A DNA stretch of 56,382 nucleotides from positions 1-56,382 of the IMG/VR virus record IMGVR_UViG_3300019926_000028; one strand, 5' to 3'. Shown here in pieces: positions 1,803 to 42,219 of the stretch. The translations under genes were made by a program, and so were the position numbers. The DNA comes from a virus. Its lineage: Duplodnaviria > Caudoviricetes. The notes under the pieces were generated by a model. The model did not search any database, was not told the DNA's origin, and worked only from the letters and a program-made list of their open reading frames with translations. Within the stretch, counting starts at the first letter, position 1. Each line of letters opens with the position of its first letter.

Positions 1803-3171
1803 CTAATAATCAAACAAACTTTGTTTAACAGTCTTATCTTCTGCGTTATTTATATCCAAGTAGTCTTTTGCTAATTCTTCAAACTCTTCGTGGTTTCGTC
1901 CTTTGAATTTGCCTTCAAGTGGTTTATGGCAAGCTTTACACAGAGAGATGAGATTGCGTAAATTATTCATTTTTTCATGCTCATCCTCTACGATCCAATA
2001 ATCAGCGGGAACTATATGATGTACATCGGGTTTCAAATTGTATTTTTGTTTAGTGTTAACTCCGCAAATTCTACAATTATTTCCATCTCTTTCCCTCACC
2101 TTCTTTTTTCTGCTCCACCATGAAGAACCATAGTATTTAACACCACCACCATTTTCTTTCCATAAATGATGCTCTTCACCTTTTGGTGCTTCCCATCCCT
2201 GTTTTATTTTTTCATTTGGTTCAAATCCCGCTTTCTCAACAGCTTTATTCCAACTTCCAAATTCATTCCTTACCCAATTTCTACTATATTTTGCATTTCT
2301 ATGATATGTTTTTTTGGTCCGGTGTTTCGTTTTTGTCGCAATAACATCTGTATATTCCCTTAATATCCTTAATTAATTGTTCTTTACCGGGATTATCTCT
2401 TCTAACAAGAGGTTCATATCCAATTTTTAATAGTGCTTTGTTAATAGTACCAAACTTTCTCGCATAAACAGTCCTGCTAAATTTAGATTCTGATATTATA
2501 TCGTGTGTTGAATTGTCAATTCCAATCCTATAAACTGCCTTCTTTAGTTCATCTAACGCTTTCTCTTTAGGAACTTCAACACCTTTTCTACTATTTTTTA
2601 AAGAAAATTTACTTTTTTGTATGATTTCTCCCCAAGAATCAAATTTATTTTGATAAGAGGTAAGTGAATATTTTGAATGCAAATTTATATCTTTTTGTGT
2701 TGGAATTTTATTTAATTTTTCTCCAACTCTTTCAAACTCAGAAATATACTCATCAATCGTTCTTGAATTATACGCCTCTGAATATTCTTTATGCCGGTAT
2801 TCTTCAAAACCACATTCCGATAAAGCATCCCACCAAGAATTTAAATGAGTTCTAAGAGTTGGAAATGAAAAATTTCCATATTCTTGGTATTGTGAGTATG
2901 ATGGCCGTCCTCTTACTTCTTCTGAAACTCTTTTGATGTCTTCTATTATCTTTTCACTAGAGATTGGATTTCCCCGTCCAACAGCATTTTTACTAAATCC
3001 AGCAACTTTTAACGCTTCGTTCCAAGAACCAAATCTATTTGAAAAAGTCGCATAAGAAATATCACCATATTTTTTCATATCTTTAACAGTTGGAGAACCC
3101 CCATCACAATACTCTTCTGATACTCTCTCTAATTCATTAACCAAGTCATCTTCGGAGTATTTAGTTGGCAT
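1803..3171 (-). pseudogene. HNH endonuclease with FGSW repeats, split by a 1-nt frameshift
   Basis: ORFs 2299-3171 and 1803-2099 join if one base is removed from the T7 run at 2309-2315. The joined protein reads PDQKTYHRNAKYSRNWVRNEFGSWNKAVEKAGFEP...YYGSSWWSRKKKVRERDG into the HNH domain. Confidence 0.8.
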
Positions 3172-4349: not shown

Positions 4350-4716
4350 TAAAATTCTCCTCGCTTATTTTTCTACTATAGAAAAACTCCGGGTGTCCAA
4401 TCTCATAAGATGGACTATATTCCCCGGTTCTACTAATTATTTCGTAACCCATCTTAGGATGAGCATAATAAGTCACATCACCATTCTCATAAGCTAATAC
4501 ATCACTCCAATTTAATTCTTCCCACCCACCAAGATTGTTTTTATCATCGTTGGGTTCACTCACAATAACTTCTAATGCTGTACGGTCATCTTTAAAAGAT
4601 ATTTCAATATCTCCTTCTTTTGAATGAATTATTTGCCCGTCATATCCTTCAGGAACTTCTAATGTTCTGAACAATTCTCTTGGTTCATCAACATAATAAA
4701 TCTCTTGCTCACTCAT
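4342..4716 (-). CDS. Hypothetical protein
   Basis: Acidic ORF with starts and stops overlapping its neighbours; ATG at 4716. Confidence 0.6.
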   Translation of the reverse strand: MSEQEIYYVDEPRELFRTLEVPEGYDGQIIHSKEGDIEISFKDDRTALEVIVSEPNDDKNNLGGWEELNWSDVLAYENGDVTYYAHPKMGYEIISRTGEYSPSYEIGHPEFFYSRKISEENFNE

Positions 4717-4870
4717 TTTCAATCAAATCTTGTAGACCGTTTCTCTCAATAATAAAGTCCATCTCTTCACGGAGTCGTTCTACTTTATTTTCTAGTTCAG
4801 AAATGCGTTCTGCTTCAACCCCGGTCTGAAAATTGTCAATTTCGGATTCACCTTCTTCAGATTCTGTCAT
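4709..4870 (-). CDS. Small acidic coiled-coil protein (53 aa)
   Basis: Not in the ORF track: MTESEEGESEIDNFQTGVEAERISELENKVERLREEMDF... A GAAAGATATTTAAA promoter-like motif lies about 25 nt upstream, and the stop overlaps the next ATG. Confidence 0.55.
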   Translation of the reverse strand: MTESEEGESEIDNFQTGVEAERISELENKVERLREEMDFIIERNGLQDLIENE

Positions 4871-4923
4871 TATTCTTTAATACACGTTTAAGGTTTAAAT
4901 ATCTTTCCTTCTACTTCAACCTT

Positions 4924-5323
4924 TCTTCAACGCTACAGGCATTCATCTGAAACCGTGTTGGAACGCCTTCAACCCCTCAAAGGTTCATCTGAAACGACCT
5001 ATGGGATTCAAAGGGTGAACTTGAGGGCGAACCTTCAACCCCTCAAGGGTTCATCTGAAACGTTTGCTATCCTCCGGGGGTTTCATCCAGTCTCTCCCTT
5101 CAACCCCTCAAGGGTTCATCTGAAACTAAACGAATTGAAATTACGGTCTTATATTGCATGCCTTCAACCCCTCAAGGGTTCATCTGAAACTGACGTTTAC
5201 CGAGATACAGAAACAGCATTAGATCCTCCTTCAACCCCTCAAGGGTTCATCTGAAACTCTTGAAGAATTGAACCCACAGAATCCAAGTCAACACCTTCAA
5301 GCCCATAAGGGTTCGACGGAGTA
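4924..5323 (-). CRISPR. CRISPR array, 7 repeats (5 near-perfect, 2 degenerate terminal) and 6 spacers
   Basis: 30-bp repeat CCTTCAACCCCTCAAGGGTTCATCTGAAAC at 4966 (1 mismatch), 5032, 5097, 5161 and 5228, degenerate at 4924 and 5294. Spacers are 12, 36, 35, 34, 37 and 36 bp. The minus-strand repeat GTTTCAGATGAACCCTTGAGGGGTTGAAGG differs at 3 positions from the haloarchaeal I-B repeat GTTTCAGACGAACCCTTGTGGGGTTGAAGC, which suggests the orientation. Confidence 0.95.
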
Positions 5324-5738
5324 TGATTGTAATATTTCTTTTTCCGATTTGTGCGGTCTTGGTGTAGACCACTTAACTTTCGGCGGGGTGTTTCGTCTTA
5401 CCGTGAAGTGTTCGCTCCCACTTGGAATACGCCAAGCACCTTGCAGATTATAATTTCCGGAACCACATCGGTCAAATGACCTGTGTTCCAACTGTTGTTG
5501 GTCTGCTACTAACGCGAGGTGTGCGCTTTCAACGCCTCTTTTCTCCTATCCCAACGAAGACCGTGGGGTACGCCCCATGCATCCAAACAAGGCCGTTCTA
5601 TTGGGCTTAACGGAGGCGAAACTTACATCGGATAGCATCGATCCGATGAATCCGGTGAAGTGCCGGATATCGGAAAGTGACATATAGCCACTCCCGACTT
5701 CAACTCACCATATGGGAGGTTAGTTAATAACTCTTTCG
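5324..5738 (-). ncRNA. Candidate tracrRNA/omegaRNA-like scaffold
   Basis: GC-richer gap with no credible ORF and many hairpins (5421-5436, 5459-5489, 5564-5577, 5626-5648, 5650-5668). It also carries a partial anti-repeat at 5390-5412. Confidence 0.55.
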
Positions 5739-6935
5739 TTAATAACTGAACAGGCCACCCTCTTCAATATATTCATTAGCTTCATTCCGGATTTCAAACC
5801 CGTCGCTTTCAAAATCACTCCCACGAAATGCAATATTCATAGATGCATTCACATCAGCATGAACTTGATATCCACACTCACCGCATTCAAAATCAGTACC
5901 ATTTCGATTACTACTATGAACATAACCACAATTTCTACACGTCTTGCTCGTATTCCGAGGATCAACAACTTCAACCGGAATTCCTTTTGCTTTAGCTTTA
6001 TACATAATCATTTCTTGAGCAAGAGCATACGGCCAATCGTGAATCGCATTTGCTGCTGTCTTCCTATAGTTTGTTAGGTCCTCCAAAACAATTTTTGGAT
6101 TGTTATGCTGAGTAGCTTCCTTTACTATATTTTTGGATGCCGTATGGAGAACCTGTTCTGTATATTTCTCGTGTTGTCCACGGCATTCTTTAACACCTTT
6201 AACATCATTATTAGCCATCATTTCCGAACGTTTTTCTTTTAATCTTTCTCGGTGGTGTCTAAATTCAGAACCATCCTTCAATTCTACATTTTTAATTCCA
6301 TCATTAGAAAGAACAGAATATGTATAGATAACATTTTCTCCAAGATCAACACCAATTACTGTTTCAACCTCTTCATCTTCAATAACATCAACGTCCCATG
6401 TAACCACTAAATGTGCCTTTAATGTATCTCCATCTTTATGTATTTCACAAGTTCCAAATGACGCTCCTTCGTTAACTATCTTATCTAAATACCTCTTTGA
6501 AAATTTATTATCGTTGATATGGAACCACTCTGGTTTATACGGAACAATATTGAACTTAATTCCATACCCTTTGTTATTTTCTTCTACTGTAATTTGTTGG
6601 CTTTTTGCTCTAACATAATTTTGCTTCCCGAAAACTGGCTTATTGCCCACTTTACCATTACTTCTCCAAGATTTATAACCACTAACAACATCTCCAATTG
6701 CTTCTGAAGCAACTTGACCAGAAACATATCTATCATCCCCCCATTCTTCTACAACATTTCTATAAAATTGAGGATTCATTGTAGACCATTGATTTTCATC
6801 AAATGATAAAATTAAATCTGATACAAATTTACTCATCTCCTGATACTCATTTATACATTTTTGAATTTTGGTATTCTTCCTATTACTCGTTTCTAGGTCA
6901 AGTACAACAGTTTGAGCAACTGTTTCAGTTGGCAT
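5739..6935 (-). CDS. tnpB: TnpB/Cas12f-like RNA-guided RuvC nuclease (398 aa)
   Basis: RuvC-I IGVDLG, RuvC-II IVLEDL, VDPRNTSKTCRNCG...CGECG zinc finger and RuvC-III HADVNASMNIA. The D-E-D triad is intact. It has its own TATA box about 25 nt upstream, and no tnpA is nearby. Confidence 0.9.
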   Translation of the reverse strand: MPTETVAQTVVLDLETSNRKNTKIQKCINEYQEMSKFVSDLILSFDENQWSTMNPQFYRNVVEEWGDDRYVSGQVASEAIGDVVSGYKSWRSNGKVGNKPVFGKQNYVRAKSQQITVEENNKGYGIKFNIVPYKPEWFHINDNKFSKRYLDKIVNEGASFGTCEIHKDGDTLKAHLVVTWDVDVIEDEEVETVIGVDLGENVIYTYSVLSNDGIKNVELKDGSEFRHHRERLKEKRSEMMANNDVKGVKECRGQHEKYTEQVLHTASKNIVKEATQHNNPKIVLEDLTNYRKTAANAIHDWPYALAQEMIMYKAKAKGIPVEVVDPRNTSKTCRNCGYVHSSNRNGTDFECGECGYQVHADVNASMNIAFRGSDFESDGFEIRNEANEYIEEGGLFSY

Positions 6936-7028
6936 ATTTTTTCTTGTAGACTACTACTTATATATTCTTCGCTCTCTAAAACAATAGAGTTTTATGCTTC
7001 CCCCTCGTAGCGGTGCTGTGCGGTAACT

Positions 7029-7321
7029 GTTCTAGTTTATAGTTTATGTTGTTCTAGTTACTATATTCGTTACTTCCTTTACATGAAATATAAAAATACC
7101 TAGGTTATCTACTTCCTTTATATACTTAACCTAGGTATTACCGTTAATCTTTTAACTATACAACTAGTACTAGACTAGTATATGGTAACAGAACTAGCAG
7201 ATATAGATGGTCTAGGCCCAAAAACAGTAGAGTCTCTAGAAGGTAATGATATAACTAGCATAGAGGATCTAGCTAACTCTAGTATTGAAGAGATTACTGA
7301 ATGTGGTATTAGTAATTCTAG
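7029..7321. promoter_or_regulatory. CTAG-rich divergent control region with a 13-bp perfect inverted repeat
   Basis: 14 CTAG sites between 7032 and 7321. Inverted repeat AATACCTAGGTTA (7095-7107) / TAACCTAGGTATT (7127-7139). Direct repeats TACTTCCTTTA (7071, 7110) and GTTCTAGTT (7029, 7051). Confidence 0.6.
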
Positions 7322-9873: not shown

Positions 9874-10810
9874 TGATAATGAGATCGAAGAAAAGAAGGC
9901 AGAGACAGTGGATACACCCGAAGAAAATCCACGGGAAGATGGTAATGAAGAAAACATGACAGACGATAATAGTACAGACTTGTCTTCGTTAGCTCCAAAT
10001 GCGATGGATATTGGAGAAGCGAGCGAGAAAGAGAGTCAGCATAAGATTATGTGCTGGTCGGACGAGGGGCAGGGAAAAACGCACTTCGGGTATACCATGC
10101 CCGATCCCATTTGCTTTATTGATACGGAAAACAAGGCAGATGATATCGCTCACAAATTTGAAGATAAGGAAGTGTATATTTGGCAACCCGATGATTTCGA
10201 TCAGGCTTGCCAACACCGTGATGAAGCTCTGAATTTCCTATCGGAGTACATGAGTCAGACGGGTGAGATTGGAACTATCGTTGTTGACTCTATGGCGGTT
10301 ATGTGGGAATGGAGTCAGTACAAGTTTATTGAGGAATGGTATCCCAATACTCCCCCGGAAGATGTGAATATTGAGTTGCAGGATTGGCCGAAGATTAAGG
10401 AATATCACAACAAGCACTTTCGGAAACCGTTTGAGAGTTGCGATTTCCACGTCTATTGGACGAGTACCCGGAAAGACGATGTTGGAGAAGTTATTTCCAA
10501 CGATGCTATTGATGAAGCACCGGATAAGCCGGGCGGTGAAAAAGAGAACGTGTATAAAGTCAATAGCATCATTCGACTGTACTTGAATCAAGATGGTGTT
10601 CCCGTTGGCGATCTACAGAAGAGTGGGTTGACTCGATTTAAGTACGTTGGTCTTGAACGTCCCACATTTGAAAAGCATAAAGAAATGCTTGATGAGATTC
10701 AGCGAATTGAGTCGGACGGTGCGAATAATGTTGGCGATGTGAAAGATATGTATAGTCTCGATTATGATGTACAGTTTACTGAAGCGAACACTATGAGGTA
10801 CTTAGAATGA
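9860..10810 (+). CDS. Sak4-like / AAA_24 P-loop ATPase
   Basis: Walker A SDEGQGKT, FIDTE, Walker B IVVDS; recombination context. Confidence 0.65.
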   Translation: MGWSDDNEIEEKKAETVDTPEENPREDGNEENMTDDNSTDLSSLAPNAMDIGEASEKESQHKIMCWSDEGQGKTHFGYTMPDPICFIDTENKADDIAHKFEDKEVYIWQPDDFDQACQHRDEALNFLSEYMSQTGEIGTIVVDSMAVMWEWSQYKFIEEWYPNTPPEDVNIELQDWPKIKEYHNKHFRKPFESCDFHVYWTSTRKDDVGEVISNDAIDEAPDKPGGEKENVYKVNSIIRLYLNQDGVPVGDLQKSGLTRFKYVGLERPTFEKHKEMLDEIQRIESDGANNVGDVKDMYSLDYDVQFTEANTMRYLE

Positions 10811-11175
10811 CTCCCGCTTTAACAGAAACAAAGGAATACGATCTGCCGTTTAGCGATTCGGTTGAGTTGGAAGTTAGTTACAACCGGATTTTAAGTCGGT
10901 TTACTATTGCCTCTCGTATGCCGAATGGCCTTCCGGAGCGGAATGAAAACAAGAAGCTTACAGAAAATGATTGGGATTTTCTACGTTGGATTGTAGATGA
11001 TTATACGAATAAGTCGTTCCGGCAGCTTTTAAATTCGGATGATTCTAATGATAAAGAAGTGGCTTATATTCTTAACATCACAATTGAGACTATACTCGGT
11101 AAGGAAATTACATCGTGGGAAGAATATAAAGGAGAAGAAGAGTTTGTAAGTAAAGGAAGTCTTGGTGTTCAATAA
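10807..11175 (+). CDS. Hypothetical protein
   Basis: Translationally coupled on both sides. Confidence 0.6.
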   Translation: MTPALTETKEYDLPFSDSVELEVSYNRILSRFTIASRMPNGLPERNENKKLTENDWDFLRWIVDDYTNKSFRQLLNSDDSNDKEVAYILNITIETILGKEITSWEEYKGEEEFVSKGSLGVQ

Positions 11176-11996
11176 TGATTACTAAAGCGAAATTCGAAAC
11201 GACCCGTGGTAATTTGCAGAAAATGCTCAAGTGGATTTCGGCCCCACTTGATGATCAATACGATAAGGCGTGGCTGAATATTCAAGATGAAGAATTACAC
11301 GCTGTTGCAAGTATGGGACAGGCAGTTGTCTCCTACTGTACTTTCAGCCAGCCTTTCGTTCAGGATATTGATATTCACGATGATGTTGATGCTTCTGCTG
11401 GTATTGAAAGCATGATTAACCTTGAAGACCTGAAGGATTACGTTGATTTCGTTGGCGGTGAACGGGTTGAAGTTTCGTTCTTGGGTAATGAGGGTGAGCA
11501 GTTGTGTCGGAAGATGGAAATTGATGGTGATATTCATGTTGATCTGTACGTTCCTTCTTCAGAGGCAGATTATGAGTCTCAACAGACAGGTATTGTGAAC
11601 CTGTATGATGATGAGAACCGTTGGCATAAGCCAAGCGACGATGAACCACTTTCGACCCGGTTCCGGACTAAGGTGCGAGAGTTTGAACGTATTGTGAAGG
11701 TGACACAGTTCGATGATTTCGCTCTTAGCACCTATCCCGTCGTGATCGAAGATGGTGAATTCTTGTTGGATGCGAAAGATGAAAACGAACGCAATTCCAT
11801 TCAGGGTAGCCTTGATGCTCAGGATGTTGACGGGCCGGATGTAAACAATTCCTATAGTCGTGGATTTGAGGAATTGTTCAATAACATTAGTGGTGAAGTG
11901 TGGGTTGATATTGAGCAGGATACTCCCATTAATGTTGTTCGGGAGAGTAATGATTCGGCGATGCAGCTACGTTTCATTTTGTTGCCTACGCAATAG
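11175..11996 (+). CDS. pcn: PCNA-like sliding clamp
   Basis: 273 aa. The N-terminus KAKFETTRGNLQKML...AWLNIQDEELHAVAS and C-terminus LRFILLP resemble PCNA ends; both RFC subunits and PolB are in the window. Confidence 0.65.
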   Translation: MITKAKFETTRGNLQKMLKWISAPLDDQYDKAWLNIQDEELHAVASMGQAVVSYCTFSQPFVQDIDIHDDVDASAGIESMINLEDLKDYVDFVGGERVEVSFLGNEGEQLCRKMEIDGDIHVDLYVPSSEADYESQQTGIVNLYDDENRWHKPSDDEPLSTRFRTKVREFERIVKVTQFDDFALSTYPVVIEDGEFLLDAKDENERNSIQGSLDAQDVDGPDVNNSYSRGFEELFNNISGEVWVDIEQDTPINVVRESNDSAMQLRFILLPTQ

Positions 11997-14661: not shown

Positions 14662-14756
14662 GAGAATGTATGAATCCGGATTGTTCGGATCGAACAGAGG
14701 GGATGTATAAAATGTTTTGTAGTAATTGTCATTGGTCGGTGGTTGTAGATGTTTGA
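14658..14756 (+). CDS. Small Cys-rich protein
   Basis: Not in the ORF track: MRECMNPDC...FCSNCH; coupled to both neighbours. Confidence 0.4.
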   Translation: MRECMNPDCSDRTEGMYKMFCSNCHWSVVVDV

Positions 14757-15711
14757 AAAACGCTATAGTTACGATGATTTACTTCTTGTTCCTCAGAAAT
14801 CACCAGTAGATACCCGATCCGATGTTGTTCTTGATACGAATGTAACTCCAAATAACAAAATCAGCATACCGCTCGTTTCTGCACCGATGGATTCGGTTAC
14901 AGGTGGAGAGCTTGCACAGAAAATGTGTGATAATGGTGGAGTGGGTATTGTTCACCGTTTTCAAGATATTGATAAACAAGTTGAACAGGTTAAATCTGTA
15001 GATGGGATCGTTGGTGCGTCTATTGGGTTGGGAAGAGATGGTTTTGATTCAGCATTTATGCTTGAAGAAGCTGGTGCTGATTTTATCTGTGTTGATGTTG
15101 CCCATGCACACATGAATAGATGTGTTTCACTCGTTGAAGAATTGAGTGAAGATATTAATGTTGATGTTATGGTAGGTAATGTTGCTACCGTACAGGGAGT
15201 TAAAGATTTAGTAAAGGCTGGTGCTGATTCTGTGAAGGTCGGCGTCGGCGGCGGATCGCACTGTAGTACAAGAGAAAAGACAGGACATGGCGTTCCACAA
15301 GCAAGTGTTGTAGAAGAGTGTTCATCCGATGTATTTGGCCTTAATCAAGACTATACTATTATTGCTGATGGCGGGATTCGGCAACCCGGTGATGCTGTTA
15401 AAGCATTAATGTTAGGTGCTGATGTTGTTATGATGGGCGGCATTTTCGGGAGAACACACGAGTCTCCGGGTGATGGTTCAGTTTGGGGCTGTGCATCCGA
15501 AGAAGCCGAAAGTGAAGATTATGTTGAAGGCGAAGTTTCGCATTCAGAAGAGAAATATAGTGTAGAAAGTGTGTTTATCAATTTTGAAGATGGTCTTCGT
15601 TCCGGTCTTAGCTACTCTGGTGGTCATTCTATCGAAGAAGCAAGAGAGAACGCACAATTTATTGAAGTGAGTCAATCTACTCAAGAACGGAATGGCGCTT
15701 TCGAAGCCTAA
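14749..15711 (+). CDS. IMP dehydrogenase / GMP reductase family enzyme (no CBS domains)
   Basis: YDDLLLVP, SAPMDSVT, VKVGVGGGSHCSTR (catalytic Cys), IIADGGIR, GLRSGLSYSG. Confidence 0.9.
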   Translation: MFEKRYSYDDLLLVPQKSPVDTRSDVVLDTNVTPNNKISIPLVSAPMDSVTGGELAQKMCDNGGVGIVHRFQDIDKQVEQVKSVDGIVGASIGLGRDGFDSAFMLEEAGADFICVDVAHAHMNRCVSLVEELSEDINVDVMVGNVATVQGVKDLVKAGADSVKVGVGGGSHCSTREKTGHGVPQASVVEECSSDVFGLNQDYTIIADGGIRQPGDAVKALMLGADVVMMGGIFGRTHESPGDGSVWGCASEEAESEDYVEGEVSHSEEKYSVESVFINFEDGLRSGLSYSGGHSIEEARENAQFIEVSQSTQERNGAFEA

Positions 15712-17323: not shown

Positions 17324-17506
17324 ATGAAAGGCGATCACCGAATTGACGCAATCATTGAAGAAGAAGTACAGGAAGGAAGAGTTACACCAGCTTATATCGC
17401 GCACGTTGGCGATGTTTCAAAGTCGTATGTGAGTCAACGACTTTCGCTGATGGTTGAGCGAGATGAGATCGAAAAAGTATATCGCGGGCTTTACGAGTTG
17501 AAATAA
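17324..17506 (+). CDS. Small winged-helix DNA-binding protein
   Basis: TPAYIA...SKSYVSQRLSLMVERDEIEKVYRGLYEL wHTH pattern. Confidence 0.65.
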   Translation: MKGDHRIDAIIEEEVQEGRVTPAYIAHVGDVSKSYVSQRLSLMVERDEIEKVYRGLYELK

Positions 17507-18582
17507 TGAAATATACTGAACAAGAATTAATTGATGAGTTGCATAGAGTTTCTGAAGAGTATTGTGGTGGTGAGACGCCGACGCAGAAAGATATGAACAA
17601 ATATGGTAAATATTCAGCCGCAACATACGAACGTCGTTTTGAATCTTGGAATGATGTTTTGGAAGTTGTTGGGTTAAAAGTAAATGTTTATAAAGATTAC
17701 ACCGACGAAGACTTAAAACAAATATTAATAGATTTTAGTGAAAAATATTGCAACGGTGAGGCTCCAACTAGAGAGTTTTTTAACAAAAAAGCGGATATTC
17801 ATTATAGTACAATAGAAAATAGATTTGGGACTTGGAATAAAGCTTTGAAAATATGTGGAAAAAGCGTTAATGAAAGACATAAAATCCCCAAAGAAAAGTT
17901 GAGATATGAATTATTTAAAGTTAAAGATGTTGTAGGTGGAACACCGACAATTGGTGAAATGTGTGAATATGGAAATCTCTCTCATGGGCCTTATGTGACT
18001 GAATTTGGTTCATGGAATAAAGCACTTGAGTATCATGGAATGGAGTATAATCATAAAAATAATTTAAGTAAAGAGTATATAAAAAATGAAATAAAGAAAG
18101 TTTCGGAAAATCATTGTGGTGGCAAGGCTCCGAAAAGAGAAGATATGCGAGAATATTCTGAAATTTGTCAAATGACCGCAACTAATAAATTTGGCTCTTG
18201 GGATGTAGCGTTGGAGCAATGTGGGATAGAATCATTAAAAGCAACCGATTATCTTCCAAGTGGAAAAGAACATTTCAATTGGTGTGGGGGTATATCAATA
18301 AATTATGGCCCTTCGTGGAATAGACAAAGAAATAAAGCAATGAAAAGAGATGGTCATTGTTGTAGACTGTGCGAAAGGCCAGTTCAAGAAACTTTAATTG
18401 ATGTTCATCATATAACACCAGTTCGCTTTTGGAGAGTAGAGCAGGAACACGAGAAAATGAACCAACTAAATAATTTAATATCTTTATGCCGATCTTGTCA
18501 TAGGAAATATGAGGGACAATTGAAGGGGAGGGGGCATGATGAATTTGAATATGTTATTGATAGTGAAGCGATAGAGTTATAA
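17506..18582 (+). CDS. HNH endonuclease with four FGSW repeats
   Basis: RFESWN, RFGTWN, EFGSWN and KFGSWD repeats; RDGHCCRLC...DVHHI...NLISLCRSCH. Confidence 0.85.
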   Translation: MKYTEQELIDELHRVSEEYCGGETPTQKDMNKYGKYSAATYERRFESWNDVLEVVGLKVNVYKDYTDEDLKQILIDFSEKYCNGEAPTREFFNKKADIHYSTIENRFGTWNKALKICGKSVNERHKIPKEKLRYELFKVKDVVGGTPTIGEMCEYGNLSHGPYVTEFGSWNKALEYHGMEYNHKNNLSKEYIKNEIKKVSENHCGGKAPKREDMREYSEICQMTATNKFGSWDVALEQCGIESLKATDYLPSGKEHFNWCGGISINYGPSWNRQRNKAMKRDGHCCRLCERPVQETLIDVHHITPVRFWRVEQEHEKMNQLNNLISLCRSCHRKYEGQLKGRGHDEFEYVIDSEAIEL

Positions 18583-20523: not shown

Positions 20524-20746
20524 CAAAGAAGCGCAAAAAGCGATAGATAAGGATATCGAAGAGAATAAGGAAATGTATCAGGCATTAGCGGATACCGATG
20601 ATGATATGAGTGAACTAAATAACCCAATGCGGTTTACAGCACGTCCGAGAAATATAAATATCCGGAACTGGCTAGGAGAAGATAAGCAGGTGACTGAGAT
20701 TGAGTTTGAACCGGGACAAATTTATGTTCATTGGGAGGAACGATGA
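20516..20746 (+). CDS. Hypothetical protein
   Basis: GGAGG SD upstream; translationally coupled. Confidence 0.55.
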   Translation: MVNKEAQKAIDKDIEENKEMYQALADTDDDMSELNNPMRFTARPRNINIRNWLGEDKQVTEIEFEPGQIYVHWEER

Positions 20747-21819
20747 GTAAAAGAATCTCAAACGAAGAGTTGATTTCTGAACTTGAAAGAATTAATGATA
20801 TAATTCCTGATAACAAAAGCCCAAGGAGGAAAGATATGAAAGATATGGGGGAATATTCCGCTGGAACTTATACTAATAGATTTGGCGGTTGGAATGAAGG
20901 ATTAAAGGAAGCAGGCTTTGAATTAAATAAGAAAGATACTGGATATCCAAAAAAGATAGCAGAAGAAGAACTTATTTTCGAGTTGCAGCGTTTGGATTCT
21001 TCTATTGATCGGAATCTACAAATGGAAGATATGCGTAAAAGAGGAAAATATACTTTTGATACTTATCAAAAGAGGTTTGGAAGTTGGAACAAAGCATTAA
21101 AAGAAGCAGGTATAGAGATTAACAGAGAAGTTAATATTTCTATTGAAGATATCGTTAAAGATATTAAAAATGTATCTGAAAAACATTGCAACGGCGGATC
21201 GCCCACATCCGTTGATATGAAAAATCACGGAAAATATTCAGAAAGAATATATCTTTTTAATAGTGATATTTCTTGGGTAGAATTGTTAAAAACAGCAGGT
21301 TTTGAAAGCAAATATCAAGTGACAGAAGAGCAGTTAATTACTGCAATACACGATCTAGCTGAAGACATTGGCAAGACGCCTTCTTCCCGTGATATGAAAA
21401 GAGAGGGGAAATATACGTCGTGTCCATATAGGCGTGTTTTTGGAACTTGGAAAAAAGCTTTGTTAAATGCTGGCTATGAACCAATTGGTTATGTTTCCGG
21501 TGAAGATCATCCGAGTTGGAAAGGTGGTGTAAAACACGAAGAACGGCGAAAGCGTGAAAATTGGTCTAAACGTGTGAAAAATAGAGATAATTATGAGTGC
21601 CAGAGATGCGAAGAAGCAAGAAGTGAAGTAAGATTTGCACACCATATAAAAAGAAAAGATCAATATCCAAATTTGGCTTTTGATGACAGTAATGGTATTA
21701 CTTTGTGCGCGGATTGTCATGCTCAAGCCCATAAAAACGATAGAGAATACAATTCATTAAAGGCACTCGCGGATGAATTGGCACGAAAAGATTACAAAAT
21801 GGTATACAGCAATGAATAA
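20743..21819 (+). CDS. HNH endonuclease with FGSW repeats
   Basis: RFGGWN, RFGSWN and VFGTWK repeats; RDNYECQRC...AHHI...NGITLCADCH. Confidence 0.85.
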   Translation: MSKRISNEELISELERINDIIPDNKSPRRKDMKDMGEYSAGTYTNRFGGWNEGLKEAGFELNKKDTGYPKKIAEEELIFELQRLDSSIDRNLQMEDMRKRGKYTFDTYQKRFGSWNKALKEAGIEINREVNISIEDIVKDIKNVSEKHCNGGSPTSVDMKNHGKYSERIYLFNSDISWVELLKTAGFESKYQVTEEQLITAIHDLAEDIGKTPSSRDMKREGKYTSCPYRRVFGTWKKALLNAGYEPIGYVSGEDHPSWKGGVKHEERRKRENWSKRVKNRDNYECQRCEEARSEVRFAHHIKRKDQYPNLAFDDSNGITLCADCHAQAHKNDREYNSLKALADELARKDYKMVYSNE

Positions 21820-36677: not shown

Positions 36678-36719
36678 CGAAACGTTTTTATACTTCGGTC
36701 TGTTATGACAACCTGTATC

Positions 36720-38786
36720 ATGGCAGACCAGTCAACCCGCAAGTCGCTTGACGCTATCAATCAGGAGTACCGAAACAGCATCCCCGAAGATATCCGAGAA
36801 TCGTATTCCTTTGAATGGTATCTTGACGAGGTTTACAATTCGCCACTCATCACCCGAAACGCACATCAGCGAGTTGCTGATATGTTTGAATATTTCGGGA
36901 CTGAATACGACGAAGACACGGGTATTGTCGAATACAAACTAGCCAGCGAAGACCCGCTTCATGATGGTGATAACGTCTTCTTTGGACGTGAAGTTCATGA
37001 AGCAATTCACGAGTTTGTGAATAAGGTTTATTCGGGTGCGCGTGGCCTTGGCCCGGAAAAGCGAATTAAACTTCTTCTTGGGCCGGTTGGGTCTGGCAAG
37101 TCTCACTTTGATTCGCGGCTTCGAAAGTATTTTGAAGAGTATACTCAGCGGGAAGAAGGACGGATGTACACTTTCCGGTGGACGAATCTTTGTGATGTGA
37201 TTGAAGATCAAGACCCATCTGATGATACTGTTCGTTCAGCGATGAATCAAGACCCGATTGTTCTTCTTCCCGAAGATCAACGGCGGGAGATTTTTGATTC
37301 ACTTAATCAGTCTGTTGATGCTGATTATAGGTTGGATAATAAGCAGTCTCTCGATCCACGAAGCGAATTCTTCATGGATGAACTGCTTGATTATTACGAT
37401 GATGATCTTCTCGCTGTTTTAGAGAATCACGTTGAAGTTATCCGTCTCATCGCAAATGAAAACCGCCGTCGTTGTGTTGAAACGTTTGAACCGAAGGATA
37501 AGAAAAATCAGGATGAAACGGAACTGACGGGGGATATTAATTACAGTAAGATTGCCGTGTATGGCGAATCTGACCCTCGTTCGTTTGAATATTCGGGAGC
37601 ATTCTGTAATGCCAATCGTGGTATTTTCTCCGGTGAAGAGTTGCTAAAGCTACAGAAGGAATTCCTGTATGATTTCCTTCACGCTACACAGGAGAAAACC
37701 ATCAAGCCACGAAATAATCCACGAATGGATATTGATCAAGTGATTGTCGGTCGAACGAATATGCCTGAGTATACTGAAAAGAAGGGGGATGAGAAGATGG
37801 AAGCATTCAACGACCGGACGAAGCGGATTGATTATCCATACGTGCTTGAGTATTCCGAAGAGGCTAATATATATGAAAAGATGCTTAATAATGCCTCTGT
37901 TCCGGAGGTTCATGTCGAACCGCACACGCTTGAAATGGCTGGTTTGTTCAGCGTAATGACGCGGGTTGATGAACCCGATACAGATAATATTGATCTGCTT
38001 CAGAAGGTGAAGGCGTATAATGGCGAAGATGGTGATATTGGTGATATTGATGTTCACAAGCTTCGTGAAGAATCCGAAGAGGAAGGGATGTATGGTGTCT
38101 CTGCCCGTTTTGTTGGCGACGAGATTTCCGAGGCTATTGTTACCCGGCTTCATGATGATAACAATTCACTATCCTCTCTTGCTGTTCTACGACACCTAGA
38201 ACAGAACCTAGAGAGTCACGGTTCGATTCCCGAAGACAACTACGACGATTACTATACCTACATCGAAGAAGTTCAGGAAGAATACAAAGACCGTGCTATT
38301 GAAGATGTTCGATACGCTCTCGCTTACAATACTGATGAAATCCAGCGAGAGGGGGAGAAGTACATGGATAACGTTGTGGCGTATATTGATGATGATAAGA
38401 TTGAAGATGATATCACGGGTGAAATGGTTGAACCTGATGAGCAATTCATGCGGTCTGTGGAGGAAGAGCTAGATATCCCCCGTGATCGGAAAGATGATTT
38501 CCGACAAGAAATCTCCAATTGGGTTACTCGTCGCGCCCGAAGTGGTGAAGACTTTGATCCGACCGACAATGACCGTCTTCTCCGCGCTCTTGAACGAAAG
38601 AATTGGAGCGATAAGAAGCATAATATTAACTTTTCTGCTTTGATTCAAAGTGATAGTGATGGTGATTCAGAGGAACGAAGCGATTGGATCGAAGCACTCA
38701 AAGAGCGTGGATACTCCGAAGAAGGCGCTCGGGAAGTTCTTGAATTCGCTGGTGCAGAGGTTGCTAAGGAGGAAATTGACGGATAA
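36720..38786 (+). CDS. prkA: PrkA/YeaG-family AAA+ ATPase / serine kinase 1
   Basis: RNAHQR, LLGPVGSGKS, DETELTGD, ANRG, EELLK, EAFNDR, PYVL, APHT-like EPHTLE. Confidence 0.9.
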   Translation: MADQSTRKSLDAINQEYRNSIPEDIRESYSFEWYLDEVYNSPLITRNAHQRVADMFEYFGTEYDEDTGIVEYKLASEDPLHDGDNVFFGREVHEAIHEFVNKVYSGARGLGPEKRIKLLLGPVGSGKSHFDSRLRKYFEEYTQREEGRMYTFRWTNLCDVIEDQDPSDDTVRSAMNQDPIVLLPEDQRREIFDSLNQSVDADYRLDNKQSLDPRSEFFMDELLDYYDDDLLAVLENHVEVIRLIANENRRRCVETFEPKDKKNQDETELTGDINYSKIAVYGESDPRSFEYSGAFCNANRGIFSGEELLKLQKEFLYDFLHATQEKTIKPRNNPRMDIDQVIVGRTNMPEYTEKKGDEKMEAFNDRTKRIDYPYVLEYSEEANIYEKMLNNASVPEVHVEPHTLEMAGLFSVMTRVDEPDTDNIDLLQKVKAYNGEDGDIGDIDVHKLREESEEEGMYGVSARFVGDEISEAIVTRLHDDNNSLSSLAVLRHLEQNLESHGSIPEDNYDDYYTYIEEVQEEYKDRAIEDVRYALAYNTDEIQREGEKYMDNVVAYIDDDKIEDDITGEMVEPDEQFMRSVEEELDIPRDRKDDFRQEISNWVTRRARSGEDFDPTDNDRLLRALERKNWSDKKHNINFSALIQSDSDGDSEERSDWIEALKERGYSEEGAREVLEFAGAEVAKEEIDG

Positions 38787-38789
38787 GGC

Positions 38790-40943
38790 ATGACTAATCC
38801 AATCCAAAAGGCCGAAGAAGAATACTCCCAGAGGGAGAGTGAAGAATACTCTCTTGAAGAGTTTCTTGAGTACGCTAAAGAAAATCCAAACACGGTTTCC
38901 AATTCGGTGCAGTATCTCGTGAATGCGATTGAGCATTTCGGAACGAGAACTGTTATCGAATATGGTGAAGAGAAGGAACGCTACCGTTTCTTCGATGACC
39001 CCGTGAACGATGGTGAACACGCCGTTCTTGGAAACACAGAAGAGTTAAACAAATTCGTTGATTCGCTGAAGCGAAAAGCATCTTCGGATGGTGAAAACGA
39101 TAAGATAATCTGGTTCACGGGGCCAACAGCGACGGGCAAATCAGAGCTAAAGCGTTGTCTATTGAATGGACTGCAAGCGTATGCGAATACGGAAGAAGGA
39201 CGTAGATATACGCTCAAGTGGAGTCTCGATTCATTATCAACATCGGGAATGACGTATGGTGATGAATTTAGAGGTGAAAGGGATTGGTATAAGAGTCCTG
39301 TCCATGTCAATCCGCTCGCCGTTTTGCCAGATTCAGTTAGAGAGGAATATCTTGAAGAATTAAACGAGGATAGTGAATCATACGTCCGTTTCGATGGAAG
39401 ACTTGACCCGTTTAGTCGGGTTGCATACGATCATCTCCAAGATGAATATGATTCATTTTCCGATATCGTTTCAGATGATCATTTAAAAGTTGTTTCTTAT
39501 ATTCCCGATATTGGAGAAGGATTTGGGTTGCTTCAATCAGAGGATGGTGGTGATCCAAAGCAGAGGATTGTTGGTTCTTGGATGCAAGAATCGATGCAGG
39601 AATATGCAGAGCGAGGTAGAAAGAACGCACAAGCGTTTACATACGATGGAGTGCTTTCACAAGGTAATTCATTGGTTTCTGTTGTGGAAGACGCACAGCA
39701 CCATTCTGAGGTGTTTACAAAACTAATGAATGTGTGCGAAGAAGATATAGTCAAGCTGGATAACAAGATTGCGATGCATATTGATTCTGTTATAATTTGC
39801 ATCTCCAATCCGGATTTTGAAGCGGCTTTAAACGAATTTGAAGACGCCGGTTCAAAAGACCCACAGAAGGCACTCCGCCGAAGACTTGAAAAATATCAAT
39901 TTAGATACCTCACAAGCTTGGTGCTTGAAACCCAACTTCTCATTAAACACCTTACAAAAAGGAATGTCTTTTGGGAGAATGAAGACGTTGAAGAGTTGGT
40001 AGAGCGCGTTTCTACACCGATTGAGAAGTATGGAACGCACTTCAGCCCCCATGCAATTGAAGCGGCTGCATACTTTAATGTATTAACTCGTATTGAACCC
40101 GGAGATATTGGGAAAAATAATAAGATTCAATACTACGATAAAGGATATAATATTGTAGATGATGAGAAAGTTGAATATGATGAAAAGATGGTGCTTTCAG
40201 AGGCGGATGGGAGAGAAGGTCTTCCTGTAACCTATACTGAAGATATACTTTCTCAACTTGCTCAAGAATTTGAAGGTCCGGTCATGCCACACGACGTAAT
40301 TGAAGCAATGAAAGAAGGTCTTCAGGGTTCGCCTATATTCTCCGATGATGAGAGAACTGACTATAAAATGGAAAAGGGGAACGTTAAAGCATATATCTCA
40401 GACGAGATGAGGAAAGACGTTCTTGAAGCTATTATTGCTGGTGATGATGTAACTAAAGATGAAATTGATTCTTATGTTGATTCTATTATTGCATGGGATG
40501 AAAATGATGAAGAAAACTACGACGCATATGAACTTCGGGAGTTTGAGAAGAAATATTTCAACTCTGCTTCCGGAGAATATGGAGAAAATGCTGAACCTTC
40601 GAATTTGATTGAATCTTTCCGAGAAGATAAAATCATTCAACCACTCAACAGGTACTACTATGAAAATTCGGATGACGGATACGATCCGGAGAACATTCCG
40701 ATAGAGGAAAGTCATGTCTTAAAAACGCTTCTTGAAGATGAGTCGTGGAAGCGTGTTGAACAGCTATATCCGAATCTTGATTATGCTCTATGGGAGAACC
40801 CACCGGAAAACTCCGAAACCGAAGAGGTTAAAAATAAGGCGATAGAAAATATGAAGGAAATGGGGTACACTGATGAATCAGCAAAACTAGCGTCAACACG
40901 GATTATTAGAGCGAGAAAGGAGGTGGCTAATAATGGGACTTAG
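38790..40943 (+). CDS. prkA: PrkA/YeaG-family ATPase 2
   Basis: RYRFFDDP, GPTATGKS, YDGVLSQGN, ISNP, ALRRRL, SPHAIE. Confidence 0.85.
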   Translation: MTNPIQKAEEEYSQRESEEYSLEEFLEYAKENPNTVSNSVQYLVNAIEHFGTRTVIEYGEEKERYRFFDDPVNDGEHAVLGNTEELNKFVDSLKRKASSDGENDKIIWFTGPTATGKSELKRCLLNGLQAYANTEEGRRYTLKWSLDSLSTSGMTYGDEFRGERDWYKSPVHVNPLAVLPDSVREEYLEELNEDSESYVRFDGRLDPFSRVAYDHLQDEYDSFSDIVSDDHLKVVSYIPDIGEGFGLLQSEDGGDPKQRIVGSWMQESMQEYAERGRKNAQAFTYDGVLSQGNSLVSVVEDAQHHSEVFTKLMNVCEEDIVKLDNKIAMHIDSVIICISNPDFEAALNEFEDAGSKDPQKALRRRLEKYQFRYLTSLVLETQLLIKHLTKRNVFWENEDVEELVERVSTPIEKYGTHFSPHAIEAAAYFNVLTRIEPGDIGKNNKIQYYDKGYNIVDDEKVEYDEKMVLSEADGREGLPVTYTEDILSQLAQEFEGPVMPHDVIEAMKEGLQGSPIFSDDERTDYKMEKGNVKAYISDEMRKDVLEAIIAGDDVTKDEIDSYVDSIIAWDENDEENYDAYELREFEKKYFNSASGEYGENAEPSNLIESFREDKIIQPLNRYYYENSDDGYDPENIPIEESHVLKTLLEDESWKRVEQLYPNLDYALWENPPENSETEEVKNKAIENMKEMGYTDESAKLASTRIIRARKEVANNGT

Positions 40944-42219
40944 AGAGGATTTGGATAGATTCAAAAAGATCGGTGAAGAAGAGCGGCAAGATTTGGTAGA
41001 ATTTATCAAACACGGAGAGATGGAAAGCGGTGATATTAAAATCCCCATCAAAGTTGTAGACCTTCCGGAGTTTGAATATGATCAGTTCTCTATGGGCGGT
41101 GTCGGGCAAGGCGAAGGTGAGGTTGGTGATCCCGTTGATGTTGATGCAGAAGAGGAAGGTGAAGGTGAAGAAGATGAAGCAGGAGAAGACGGGGGAGAGC
41201 ATGGATACTACGAGATGGACCCCGAAGAGTTTGCTCAAGAGTTGGATGACCGTCTCGGTCTTGACCTTGACCCAAAGGGAAAGAAGGTAAAAGAAATCAC
41301 AGAAGGTGCGTTAGTTGAAAAAGTTCGAAGCGGGCCTGATGCAACCGTTGATTTTGAAGAGTTATATAAGAAAGGACTAAAGCGAGAACTTGCACTTTTC
41401 TTTGATGAGGATTACATCCGAGAAGTGATGAAAGTTGCAGGCTTCGGTGTTGAACAGACATTTGATTGGGCTAGAGGAAATAATATCCCCGTTTCAAAGG
41501 GTTGGATTCAAAACGAATATAGAAATATATCACAACCGACAAAGTACAAATCAATAGATGAAATCGAACAAGAACGGCGAAGGCAACCGACAGCAAGAGA
41601 ACTTAGCTCGGTGCAACTCCGACGAGAAGACAAGAGACACAAGTACCCGGAAATCAGTAAAGAATACGAGAAGAACGCGGTTATTGTCTTCATTAGAGAC
41701 GTTTCCGGTTCGATGGGTAAAAGCAAACGGGACTTGGTTGAGCGTGTATTTACTCCGTTAGATTGGTATCTGACAGGTAAGTATGATAATGCCGAATTCC
41801 ACTACATCGCTCACGATGCTGAAGCTTGGGAAGTGGAACGAGAGAAGTTCTTTGGAATAAAGTCTGGTGGAGGAACGAAGATTTCTTCAGCATACTTACT
41901 TGCTCAAGAAATACTTGATTCCGAATACCCGTGGAGTGAATGGAACAGGTATGTCTTCGCAGCAGGTGATGGTGAGAATTGGATGCAAGACACAGAAGAA
42001 GAAGTTATTCCATTAATGGAAGAAATTGATTGCAATCTTCATGGATATGTTCAAGTTCAGAGCGATGGTCAATATGGTATAACTTCATCGGGAGTGCATG
42101 GGGAAGAGGTTGAAGACCACTTCGGAGACGATAGTAATGTCGCTGTTACATACATAGACGATAAAGATGACGTGATGGAATCGATTGAAGATATTCTTTC
42201 AACGGAGGATTCAGAATGA
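40933..42219 (+). CDS. yeaH: YeaH/YhbH (DUF444) vWA-domain protein
   Basis: MGLREDLDRF, GGVGQG, RDVSGSM MIDAS, SGGGTKISSAY, WNRY...GDGEN. Confidence 0.88.
   Translation: MGLREDLDRFKKIGEEERQDLVEFIKHGEMESGDIKIPIKVVDLPEFEYDQFSMGGVGQGEGEVGDPVDVDAEEEGEGEEDEAGEDGGEHGYYEMDPEEFAQELDDRLGLDLDPKGKKVKEITEGALVEKVRSGPDATVDFEELYKKGLKRELALFFDEDYIREVMKVAGFGVEQTFDWARGNNIPVSKGWIQNEYRNISQPTKYKSIDEIEQERRRQPTARELSSVQLRREDKRHKYPEISKEYEKNAVIVFIRDVSGSMGKSKRDLVERVFTPLDWYLTGKYDNAEFHYIAHDAEAWEVEREKFFGIKSGGGTKISSAYLLAQEILDSEYPWSEWNRYVFAAGDGENWMQDTEEEVIPLMEEIDCNLHGYVQVQSDGQYGITSSGVHGEEVEDHFGDDSNVAVTYIDDKDDVMESIEDILSTEDSE

Follow-up and report, generated by a model that had tools for sequence, protein, structure and literature searches.

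A TnpB-family nuclease gene, a structured RNA and a class 1-type CRISPR array form a conserved cassette in a halovirus, other mobile elements and haloarchaea

A three-part locus in a halovirus genome

The sequence considered here, referred to as the window, is a 56,382-bp virus record from IMG/VR (IMGVR_UViG_3300019926_000028) with a G+C content of ~40%. Its completeness is estimated at 53%, and gene absences stated for the window apply to this available half of the virus genome only. Three features follow one another on its minus strand: a gene for a TnpB-family, Cas12f-like RuvC nuclease (5739..6935), a conserved structured RNA of ~400 nt (5335..5738), and a CRISPR array of class 1 type. The same trio of nuclease, RNA and array is found in ~40 loci from hypersaline metagenomes, haloviruses, proviruses, the Haloarcula marismortui plasmid pNG300 and haloarchaeal chromosomes.

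The nuclease

The nuclease gene is an open reading frame encoding 398 amino acids. The protein matches Pfam PF07282 (E 2.6e-22) and, above the curated cut-off, the NCBIfam guided_TnpB model NF040570 (144.2 bits versus 100). The NCBIfam Cas12f2 model NF049972 aligns with residues 163-372 only, at 121.9 bits versus a cut-off of 450, which is below the curated membership threshold. The protein has the WED-RuvC-TNB domain set with an intact D-E-D triad. The RuvC residues (D197, E285 and D361) and the zinc-ribbon cysteines (333, 336, 351 and 354, arranged in CxxC pairs) are invariant in all 30 aligned relatives, which bears out the initial annotation of this gene as a catalytically intact 398-residue RuvC nuclease.

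The AlphaFold (AF2) model of the protein has a pLDDT of 87.5, with residues 384-398 disordered. Its best Foldseek match is AsCas12f (8dzj_A, E 3.2e-23, TM 0.72; for 9nzq_A, TMq 0.74). AsCas12f, OsCas12f, SpCas12f1, CnCas12f and Un1Cas12f rank ahead of the TnpB proteins of ISFba1 and ISDra2 (ISDra2 E 5.6e-13). A profile search of PDB sequences returns CnCas12f (8hr5, E 5.5e-37) and AsCas12f (8j12, E 3.1e-36), with ISDra2 TnpB at 4.3e-5 and LaTranC at 3.9e-5. The predicted fold is Cas12f-like, and by both comparisons the nearest solved relatives of the nuclease are Cas12f enzymes.

The structured RNA

Between the gene and the repeats lie ~410 nt of non-coding sequence (5738 to ~5329, minus strand) without a credible open reading frame. 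Folded as a single sequence, this stretch gives a z score of -2.31. Searches with nhmmer, RNAalifold and covariation analysis define within it the conserved RNA at 5335..5738, here called the scaffold, which resembles a tracrRNA (trans-activating CRISPR RNA) and has a covarying core at 5697..5335. RNAalifold predicts 84 base pairs in 18 helices, long-range ones included, from 22 distinct sequences, and 69 of the 84 pairs show compensatory changes on both sides. Standard pairs occupy 94.8% of cells; sliding the partners by 1-3 columns lowers this share to 37-40%. Covariation scores 0.621, versus at most 0.116 in the slid controls, and none of 500 shuffles reaches the observed values. It is mainly because of this covariation across relatives, more than the single-sequence fold, that the structure is accepted, and the comparative evidence indicates that it is real. 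The initial annotation had described 415 bp of structured DNA here; the structure stands, with a length of ~410 nt.

A GGAAAAAGAAA motif (5335..5345, minus strand) closes the conserved scaffold and is nearly invariant in the scaffold alignment (A3). An AT-rich box is present ~30 nt before helix 1 in every aligned sequence, in the window within the 5' 40 nt of 5335..5738, and is a candidate archaeal TATA element that could act as the scaffold promoter. The scaffold stretch is 85-90% identical at the nucleotide level among clade-a virus loci whose nucleases share only 64-86%. It matches no Rfam family at E≤1. A classical tracrRNA anti-repeat duplex was considered and rejected: pairing of the scaffold with its own repeat, as scored by RNAduplex, is no better than with shuffled repeats, both in the window and across 17 loci (mean z +0.41).

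The CRISPR array and its leader

A repeat search finds seven copies on the strand of the gene, but they are of unequal quality. The array proper (4966..5257, minus strand) consists of five 30-nt repeats (GTTTCAGATGAACCCTTGAGGGGTTGAAGG; one copy has one mismatch) and four spacers of 34-37 nt. Its five repeats are all above the gathering score of the Rfam family CRISPR-DR24 (5228-5257, 5161-5190, 5097-5126, 5032-5061 and 4966-4995). At the distal end are a 12-nt spacer stump and a decayed terminal repeat (4924..4965, minus strand), and the copy at 4924-4953 is under the gathering score (29.2 versus 35 bits). At the scaffold end, repeat search and comparison of junctions identify a pseudo-repeat (5294..5328, minus strand), a 63% copy that keeps the 3' end ...CTTGAAGG and is unmatched by Rfam at E≤1. 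Between it and the array proper lies a 36-nt 'spacer 0' (5258..5293, minus strand), which the pseudo-repeat ties in cis to the scaffold. The array is co-oriented with the gene, as first annotated, and the seven repeats originally counted resolve into five good and two degenerate copies.

The repeats of the window are 30 nt long and of the I-B family. The exact repeat is absent from 401 sampled Halobacteria genomes, where the nearest repeats differ by two mismatches (28/30 identity, in three of the 401). Identity to the repeat of a cas-adjacent I-B array in Natrinema hispanicum (locus L114; loci are given by such numbers where they must be told apart) is 26/30 by our own count. The assignment to the haloarchaeal I-B type made in the initial annotation, which gave an identity of 27/30, stands. 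The repeats being of a host class 1 type, the suggestion that the virus borrowed a host repeat is also supported. In some relatives the repeats are of another type, 36-37 nt long and ending in ...GGGATTGAAAC.

Relatives of the divergent type (clade b) have a characteristic sequence between scaffold and array. Past the scaffold comes a hairpin (CCGTCGACCCC...GGGTCGACGG) with the pattern CCrTCGACCCC...GGTCGAyGG, then ~60 nt, then CATG and the first repeat. In Natrinema hispanicum, the array beside cas6...cas1-cas2 has this same leader, as does the cas-adjacent array of Halegenticoccus tardaugens (L102), and the correspondence marks the leader of the relatives as a genuine I-B one. Class 1 systems were evidently the source of the array with its leader, which did not grow from an omegaRNA. 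The window is without the I-B leader. In its place the pseudo-repeat (...TTGAAGG), which aligns with the 5' arm of the relatives' leader hairpin, joins the scaffold to spacer 0, and the resulting string of scaffold, pseudo-repeat and spacer 0 looks much like a natural single guide.

The window repeat reads AACCCTTGAGGGG; the AACCC motif is kept, but GAGGG stands where GTGGG would be expected. In Haloarcula hispanica, GTGGG is reported to be needed for accurate repeat duplication (PMC4872114). The GAGGG variant together with the lost leader suggests that the virus array no longer acquires spacers, and the array is short and probably static.

Spacers differ between the window and the related viruses L007 and L087, and those of the window have no self-match in the window or in any retrieved locus. 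In the 48-repeat array of pNG300, six spacers match Haloarcula tailed virus 3 (HATV-3), and all six protospacers carry 5'-TTC. TTC is the protospacer adjacent motif (PAM) reported to be selected by the Haloarcula hispanica I-B system (PMC3936756), and it sits on the side read by type V effectors. Both the I-B leader of the relatives and these TTC-flanked protospacers fit the earlier proposal that spacer acquisition is borrowed from the host.

Distribution and organisation in relatives

The protein search returned 77 clusters at 256-914 bits, with the next match at 120 bits. Scans with an alignment of the 17 closest relatives gave 80 metagenome and 7 viral loci, and a scan with an alignment of 30 gave 17 genome loci, 9 of them haloarchaeal. 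A tblastn search of plasmids led to pNG300. Viral contigs yielded nothing in a first scan with the single protein, but did yield relatives in the alignment-based scan. Cultured phage records contain no protein relative at E≤1e-20, and positions 4500-7200 of the window have no DNA match in the phage collection.

Among 50 loci with a family member, the nhmmer profile of the scaffold matches 38. In four more the scaffold was located by a hairpin anchor (L028, L031 and L101) or by eye (L090). The remaining eight comprise six loci with too little sequence on the side in question (L017, L034, L035, L037, L039 and L041), one in which a 5'-truncated gene abuts the array (L102), and one that is unclear (L040). 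A scan for the window repeat shows an array next to most relatives, and CRISPR repeats are seen in 35 of the 50 loci, the rest, except L040, being cut by contig ends. Homologues down to 36% identity retain the adjacent array, so that the check for array retention proposed with the initial annotation has a positive outcome, and the conserved linkage of effector and array seen in type V systems is present here as well.

The relative arrangement of the three parts is only partly fixed. The scaffold is directly upstream of the array and on the array strand without exception. The nuclease gene is upstream of the RNA and on the same strand in the window, L007-L010, L021, L087, L023 and L025. It is divergent in most loci, including those of Natrinema, Natronococcus, Haloarcula amylolytica, Halovenus, Halonotius and pNG300, and convergent with the RNA in L020. 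A maximum-likelihood tree was built from 34 family rows and 5 outgroup rows. It omits exact or near duplicates (L014, L015, L091, L094, L100 and L026) and cut or truncated genes (L010, L017, L029, L034, L035, L037-L041 and L102), and includes the frameshifted gene of L021 with X at its stops. The family is monophyletic (100/100). The same-strand layout occupies at least three separate positions in the tree, and the repeat type switches inside the family.

The low-GC viruses L007 and L087 share synteny with the window on the side of the RadA-like gene, and the module sits in the same genomic place. In related viruses, nuclease, scaffold and array are still found side by side at 64-86% protein identity, and by this comparison the cassette is an inherited fixture of the window's virus lineage. 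The initial annotation had proposed an independent TnpB-to-Cas12 transition in the window halovirus. As worded, this is not supported: the module is an old monophyletic family that extends across chromosomes, a plasmid, proviruses and viruses and has Cas12f enzymes as its nearest solved relatives. As judged from these sequences, the family is widespread, old and close to Cas12f, and not a private event of the window virus.

Individual loci show further peculiarities. In Halegenticoccus tardaugens (L102, 7712-10954) a 35-repeat array in the opposite orientation abuts a tnpB gene of which the first 56 codons are missing. No scaffold is detectable there, and the locus has the look of a decayed module copy next to a complete I-B system. 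In pNG300 (L113) a second, unrelated gene annotated as 'IS200/IS605 family transposase' (449 amino acids; 10173-11522, minus strand) directly follows the family gene on the opposite strand. In Haloarcula amylolytica (L100) a phage tail tube gene (PF18906; 17225-18154, minus strand) lies 6 kb from the module, which seems to be in or beside a provirus; the same locus is represented in IMG/VR as L089.

Predicted pairing between the scaffold and the repeat

Hairpin 2 of the scaffold (5651..5667, minus strand) has the loop ACTTCA (5661..5656), which is complementary to TGAAG at the 3' end of the repeat in the window and is the proposed strand of a pseudoknot. In 28 loci the five core positions of loop and repeat are paired in 139 of 140 cells. 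There are 16 distinct loop-repeat combinations, and 14 of 20000 permutations match the observed pairing. The loop TTCCA faces the repeat end TGGAA in L087, CTTCG faces CGAAG in L011 and L096 and CGGAG in L014, and TTTCA faces TGAAA in L020. CCTCCA occurs with TGGAGG in L024, and GCTTCA with TGAAGC in L089, L099 and pNG300. All loci with 36-37-nt repeats combine GTTTCA with TGAAAC. L090, examined later, also conforms. Across the aligned loci, the loop thus tracks the end of the repeat, even across a full switch of repeat class.

In the omegaRNA of ISDra2, the nucleotides at -5 to -3 ahead of the guide form pairs with those at -103 to -105, and this pseudoknot is said to be conserved throughout the Cas12 guide RNAs (PMC10097598). 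The loop-repeat pairing found here has, by analogy, the same place and size, and at the level of sequence a guide pseudoknot like that of type V systems is predicted. The 5' handle of the haloarchaeal I-B CRISPR RNA (crRNA) is reported to be 8 nt in Haloferax (PMC6546412), which would leave room for such a short pairing and no more. This predicted pseudoknot is the only visible link between scaffold and crRNA.

The three parts probably work together, because they stay together through gene inversions and switches of repeat class and because the loop tracks the repeat end. We put at roughly 60% the probability that in this conserved three-part cassette, of which the window carries one member, a type V-like effector is programmed by class 1-type crRNAs.

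The same pairing could serve a different end. The scaffold and nuclease may act on the array or its products, through processing of precursor crRNA, regulation or sequestration of host crRNAs in the manner of an RNA anti-CRISPR, or assistance in spacer uptake. The loop is complementary to a tag common to all host crRNAs of the given repeat type, the module resides on viruses, proviruses and plasmids, which profit from disturbing host CRISPR, and no long anti-repeat was found. Such a role appears unlikely, given that the DNA-cutting RuvC triad is kept in 30 of 30 relatives, that the pairing directly precedes the spacer with the loop near the 5' end of the scaffold, as in the TnpB/Cas12 guide pseudoknot, and that an own array of up to 48 repeats would be superfluous for a pure inhibitor.

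Copy number and cas genes in carrier genomes

Each of five haloarchaeal genomes (5/5) contains a single family gene, which scores 516-610 bits against at most 152 bits for any other TnpB, and one scaffold copy, which lies beside that gene. The hallmarks of a mobile element, TnpA and multiple near-identical copies, are lacking in that the window has no Y1 TnpA and the five genomes have a single copy, transposon ends not having been searched for as such. Homologues in multi-copy insertion sequences would have spoken against the initial annotation; those found are not of this kind.

Cas1 (PF01867), Cas6 (TIGR01877) and Y1 TnpA (PF01797) were not found in the window, whereas the controls were detected in Haloferax volcanii. 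The absence of tnpA and cas genes claimed in the initial annotation holds for these three; Cascade genes were not searched for there. Around the module of pNG300, no cas gene is named among 23 annotated features, so that neither locus shows an adjacent cas operon in this respect. In three of the five carrier genomes, with 24, 10 and 48 repeats, no Cas1, Csh2 or Cas6 was detected, again with controls detected in Haloferax volcanii. The probes PF01905 and PF10040 for Cas7 and Cas6 failed these controls and were dropped in favour of TIGR02590 and TIGR01877.

These observations bear on the main rival of a crRNA-programmed cassette, an immobilised and self-contained OMEGA (TnpB-omegaRNA) unit with a fixed guide. 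Its ancestral element would have landed beside a leader and remained linked to a class 1 array that serves host Cascade alone. The protein is classed by NCBIfam as guided_TnpB, the RNA of the window lies 3' of the gene as an omegaRNA would, the sequence past GGAAAAAGAAA is no more than semi-conserved, which a fixed guide subject to drift might be as well, and the I-B leaders and TTC-selected spacers are usable by Cascade. We nevertheless regard such a unit as quite improbable. The loop covaries with the repeat end of each locus, even across the switch of repeat class, a behaviour that a unit ignoring the array would not show. The RNA also keeps its place at the array through at least three flips of the gene, the module and long arrays persist in the three genomes without detected Cas1, Csh2 and Cas6, and in our reading of the alignment no cis partner for the loop is seen near the 3' end of the scaffold (A3, by eye; no consistent candidate).

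A related alternative is a virus mini-array for conflict between viruses, acting purely through the I-B Cascade of the host as in Sulfolobales viruses, with the TnpB gene as a passenger. Virus mini-arrays with host-type repeats are reported (PMC6858448), and the array of the window is short and without cas genes. The objections raised against an OMEGA unit apply equally here, and the trio is moreover kept at the same place in related viruses at 64-86% protein identity, making this explanation very improbable.

Proposed mode of action

If the cassette is programmed by crRNAs, its operation may be pictured as follows. The scaffold RNA would be made from its own AT-rich promoter, and in the window virus transcription would read on into the array. 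Cleavage of the array transcript would yield crRNAs whose 5' tag consists of the last repeat nucleotides, a step in which host Cas6 could act where present. The loop of the scaffold hairpin would pair with the last 5-6 nt of the tag, forming a pseudoknot just before the guide as in TnpB omegaRNA and Cas12, and the nuclease, loaded with this split guide, would cut spacer-matching DNA beside a 5' PAM. The host would supply new spacers through its I-B adaptation proteins, working at the I-B leader, which the relatives keep and the window virus has lost. A virus or plasmid could in this way use the cassette against competing elements without carrying Cascade or Cas1/2.

In its most specific form, which we hold tentatively and at a little less than even odds, this amounts to a class 2 effector running on class 1 guides. 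A ~400-nt RNA adaptor would read the short 5' tag of type I/III crRNAs through a 5-6-bp pseudoknot, and would thereby arm a 398-residue Cas12f-like nuclease, borne by viruses, plasmids and proviruses, from arrays filled by host I-B (or I-D/III-type) adaptation and perhaps processed by host Cas6. The loop would have been retuned at each switch of repeat type.

Several points weigh against a crRNA-programmed effector. Transcription, processing, ribonucleoprotein assembly, cleavage and biological role of the cassette are inferred, and the strand of the scaffold RNA is deduced from its co-orientation with the array. The scaffold, to judge from its sequence, has no extended anti-repeat of the Cas12f tracrRNA type. 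The loop-repeat pairing is only 5-6 bp long, with one combination in most loci, and its covariation rests on ~8 variant lineages; in one exception, L022, four of six positions are paired. In most relatives ~150 nt of leader separate the scaffold from the array, and assembly in trans must be assumed. A search of the phage collection at E≤1 gives no match to the array of the window, its four spacers have no exact 25-26-mer in IMG/VR, and the arrays of L088, L099 and L100 have no match in the phage collection. The carrier genomes without detected cas genes are drafts, one of them a 2.0-Mb metagenome-assembled genome. Haloarcula marismortui presumably has a I-B system of its own, in which case its Cascade could use the pNG300 array alone. 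The family gene of L021 (311-1505) has a length that is not a multiple of three and many frame-1 stops, by frameshift or assembly error, with scaffold and array intact. Finally, a semi-conserved AYTCAT, 4-10 nt past GGAAAAAGAAA in most loci (A3; in the window ~5334-5320), is unexplained. In two subclades TTGTCGCA or GTTTCCGTAC stands in its place.

Type V systems presumably had many origins in TnpB, with the omegaRNA being split and an array gained. If the crRNA-programmed cassette is real, it would show that a type V system can be reached by a second route, and it would provide a minimal rule for how a guide is joined to a TnpB scaffold. A widespread class 2-like effector, annotated as a transposase, would then exist in haloarchaea, which are known for their type I systems, and in the viruses that infect them. 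The cassette would be a portable, 'effector-only' CRISPR unit and a natural bridge between the CRISPR classes, and its nuclease would be small, salt-adapted and programmable, with a guide needing only a 5-8-nt tag. The pNG300 member belongs to the cultivable Haloarcula marismortui, which makes the idea directly testable.

Comparison with known systems

The closest parallels are found in type V-F (Cas12f/Cas14; AsCas12f, OsCas12f and CnCas12f). Both have a nuclease of ~400 residues with RuvC and TNB domains beside an array, no Cas1/2/4, and a separate non-coding RNA between gene and array. The haloarchaeal loci differ in that a loop pairing of only 5-6 nt, and no extended repeat:anti-repeat duplex, is found, the repeats and leader are of class 1 (I-B or the 36-37-nt type), the orientation of the gene relative to RNA and array varies, and the hosts are haloarchaea and their viruses. 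The protein is also under the NCBIfam Cas12f2 cut-off. Cas12f tracrRNAs are much shorter than the ~400 nt of the scaffold, and Cas12f enzymes act as dimers. A mining study of 93 Cas14 homologues has one Euryarchaeota entry, and 'Halo' and 'Natr' are absent from its main text (PMC10606334).

Transposon-CRISPR intermediates (TranC) and an 'RNA splitting' model were reportedly presented by Jin et al. in Cell in 2025. Splitting of the omegaRNA is described as underlying TnpB's change into Cas12 (PMC13565253; bioRxiv 10.64898/2026.03.27.714800). As these accounts have it, TranC resembles the present family in combining a TnpB-sized nuclease with an array and a guide split into scaffold RNA and crRNA, and one member lies in a phage genome and has no accessory cas genes. 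The sequence relation to LaTranC is weak (E 3.9e-5), and the repeats of TranC clades are given as 32-38 bp and of unknown subtype (bioRxiv 10.64898/2026.03.27.714800), unlike the recognisably class 1 repeats and leader here.

The family shares with the IS200/IS605 TnpB of ISDra2 its domain set and RuvC triad, in the window the position of the RNA downstream of the gene, and a pseudoknot, here predicted, between pre-guide nucleotides and a 5' element of the scaffold, as described for ISDra2 (PMC10097598). ISDra2 is nevertheless a distant match in both the profile search and Foldseek (E 4.3e-5 and 5.6e-13). In contrast to IS200/IS605 TnpB, the present genes are single-copy and without TnpA, RNA and gene are uncoupled in most members, and an array supplies multiple guides. 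The layout of an omegaRNA, on the same strand and 3' of tnpB, occurs in the window and seven other loci but does not hold for the family, in which the gene is mostly divergent, or convergent (L020), and an array follows.

The V-U* branches of Altae-Tran et al. 2023 (PMC10691335) are likewise clades of TnpB in stable linkage with arrays and with no further cas genes, some of them archaeal. That survey describes the greater Cas12f branch as having arrays only and no adaptation genes, and TnpB as having repeatedly become Cas12. Conserved arrays there are almost always downstream of the gene; here they are class 1-like and mostly upstream and divergent. By its own account, the survey left out loci with arrays tied to non-type-V systems, a possible reason why loci such as these would be missed. 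Its main text mentions Halobacteria once, for a different group of ~220-residue proteins.

Adaptation-less I-B systems of haloarchaeal proviruses (PMC12596717) and virus mini-CRISPR arrays (PMC6858448) also place a host-type array on a mobile element and leave adaptation to the host. As described there they need Cascade, whereas the only effector-like gene here is a TnpB-family nuclease with its own scaffold RNA. The former study cites the Halegenticoccus TnpB (L102), in the text available, only as a marker of mobile DNA. In the literature searched, no description was found of the haloarchaeal family, its RNA, or a type V-like scaffold tuned to class 1 repeats; supplementary lists of PMC10691335 and of the TranC study lay outside the search, and earlier cataloguing is possible. 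The new elements are the haloarchaeal trio, its RNA and the class 1-tuned scaffold, while transitions from TnpB to Cas12, the array-only Cas12f branch and omegaRNA splitting were already known.

Other features of the window

The available part of the genome is a replication module of a large halovirus. It encodes a family-B DNA polymerase, a RadA/Rad51-like recombinase, an RFC-like ATPase, a helicase, an exonuclease and a DNA methyltransferase. The region between the nuclease gene and the divergent RadA-like gene (6936-7181) is AT-rich and has many short CTAG-containing repeats, including ctagtt..., cctaggt... and actagtactagactagt, which are possibly promoters or operator sites.

Several HNH homing endonucleases are also encoded. 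Four paralogues carry 3-4 'homing endonuclease associated repeats' (PF18780), at 233-1138 and 2299-3171 on the minus strand and at 17506-18582 and 20731-21819 on the plus strand. An HNH domain is present in three of them, the copy at 2299-3171 being without one. Such a load of homing-endonuclease-like genes is unusual for half a virus genome. An IMP dehydrogenase/GMP reductase family protein (PF00478, E 3.2e-77; 14749-15711, plus strand) represents an auxiliary gene of nucleotide metabolism. Four large genes stand in a row at 36705-43961 on the plus strand, with two matches to phrog_22605, one to DUF444 (PF04285, E 2.8e-90) and one to phrog_35217. DUF444 belongs to the cellular PrkA/YeaH/SpoVR stress triad, and such a triad would be odd in a halovirus.

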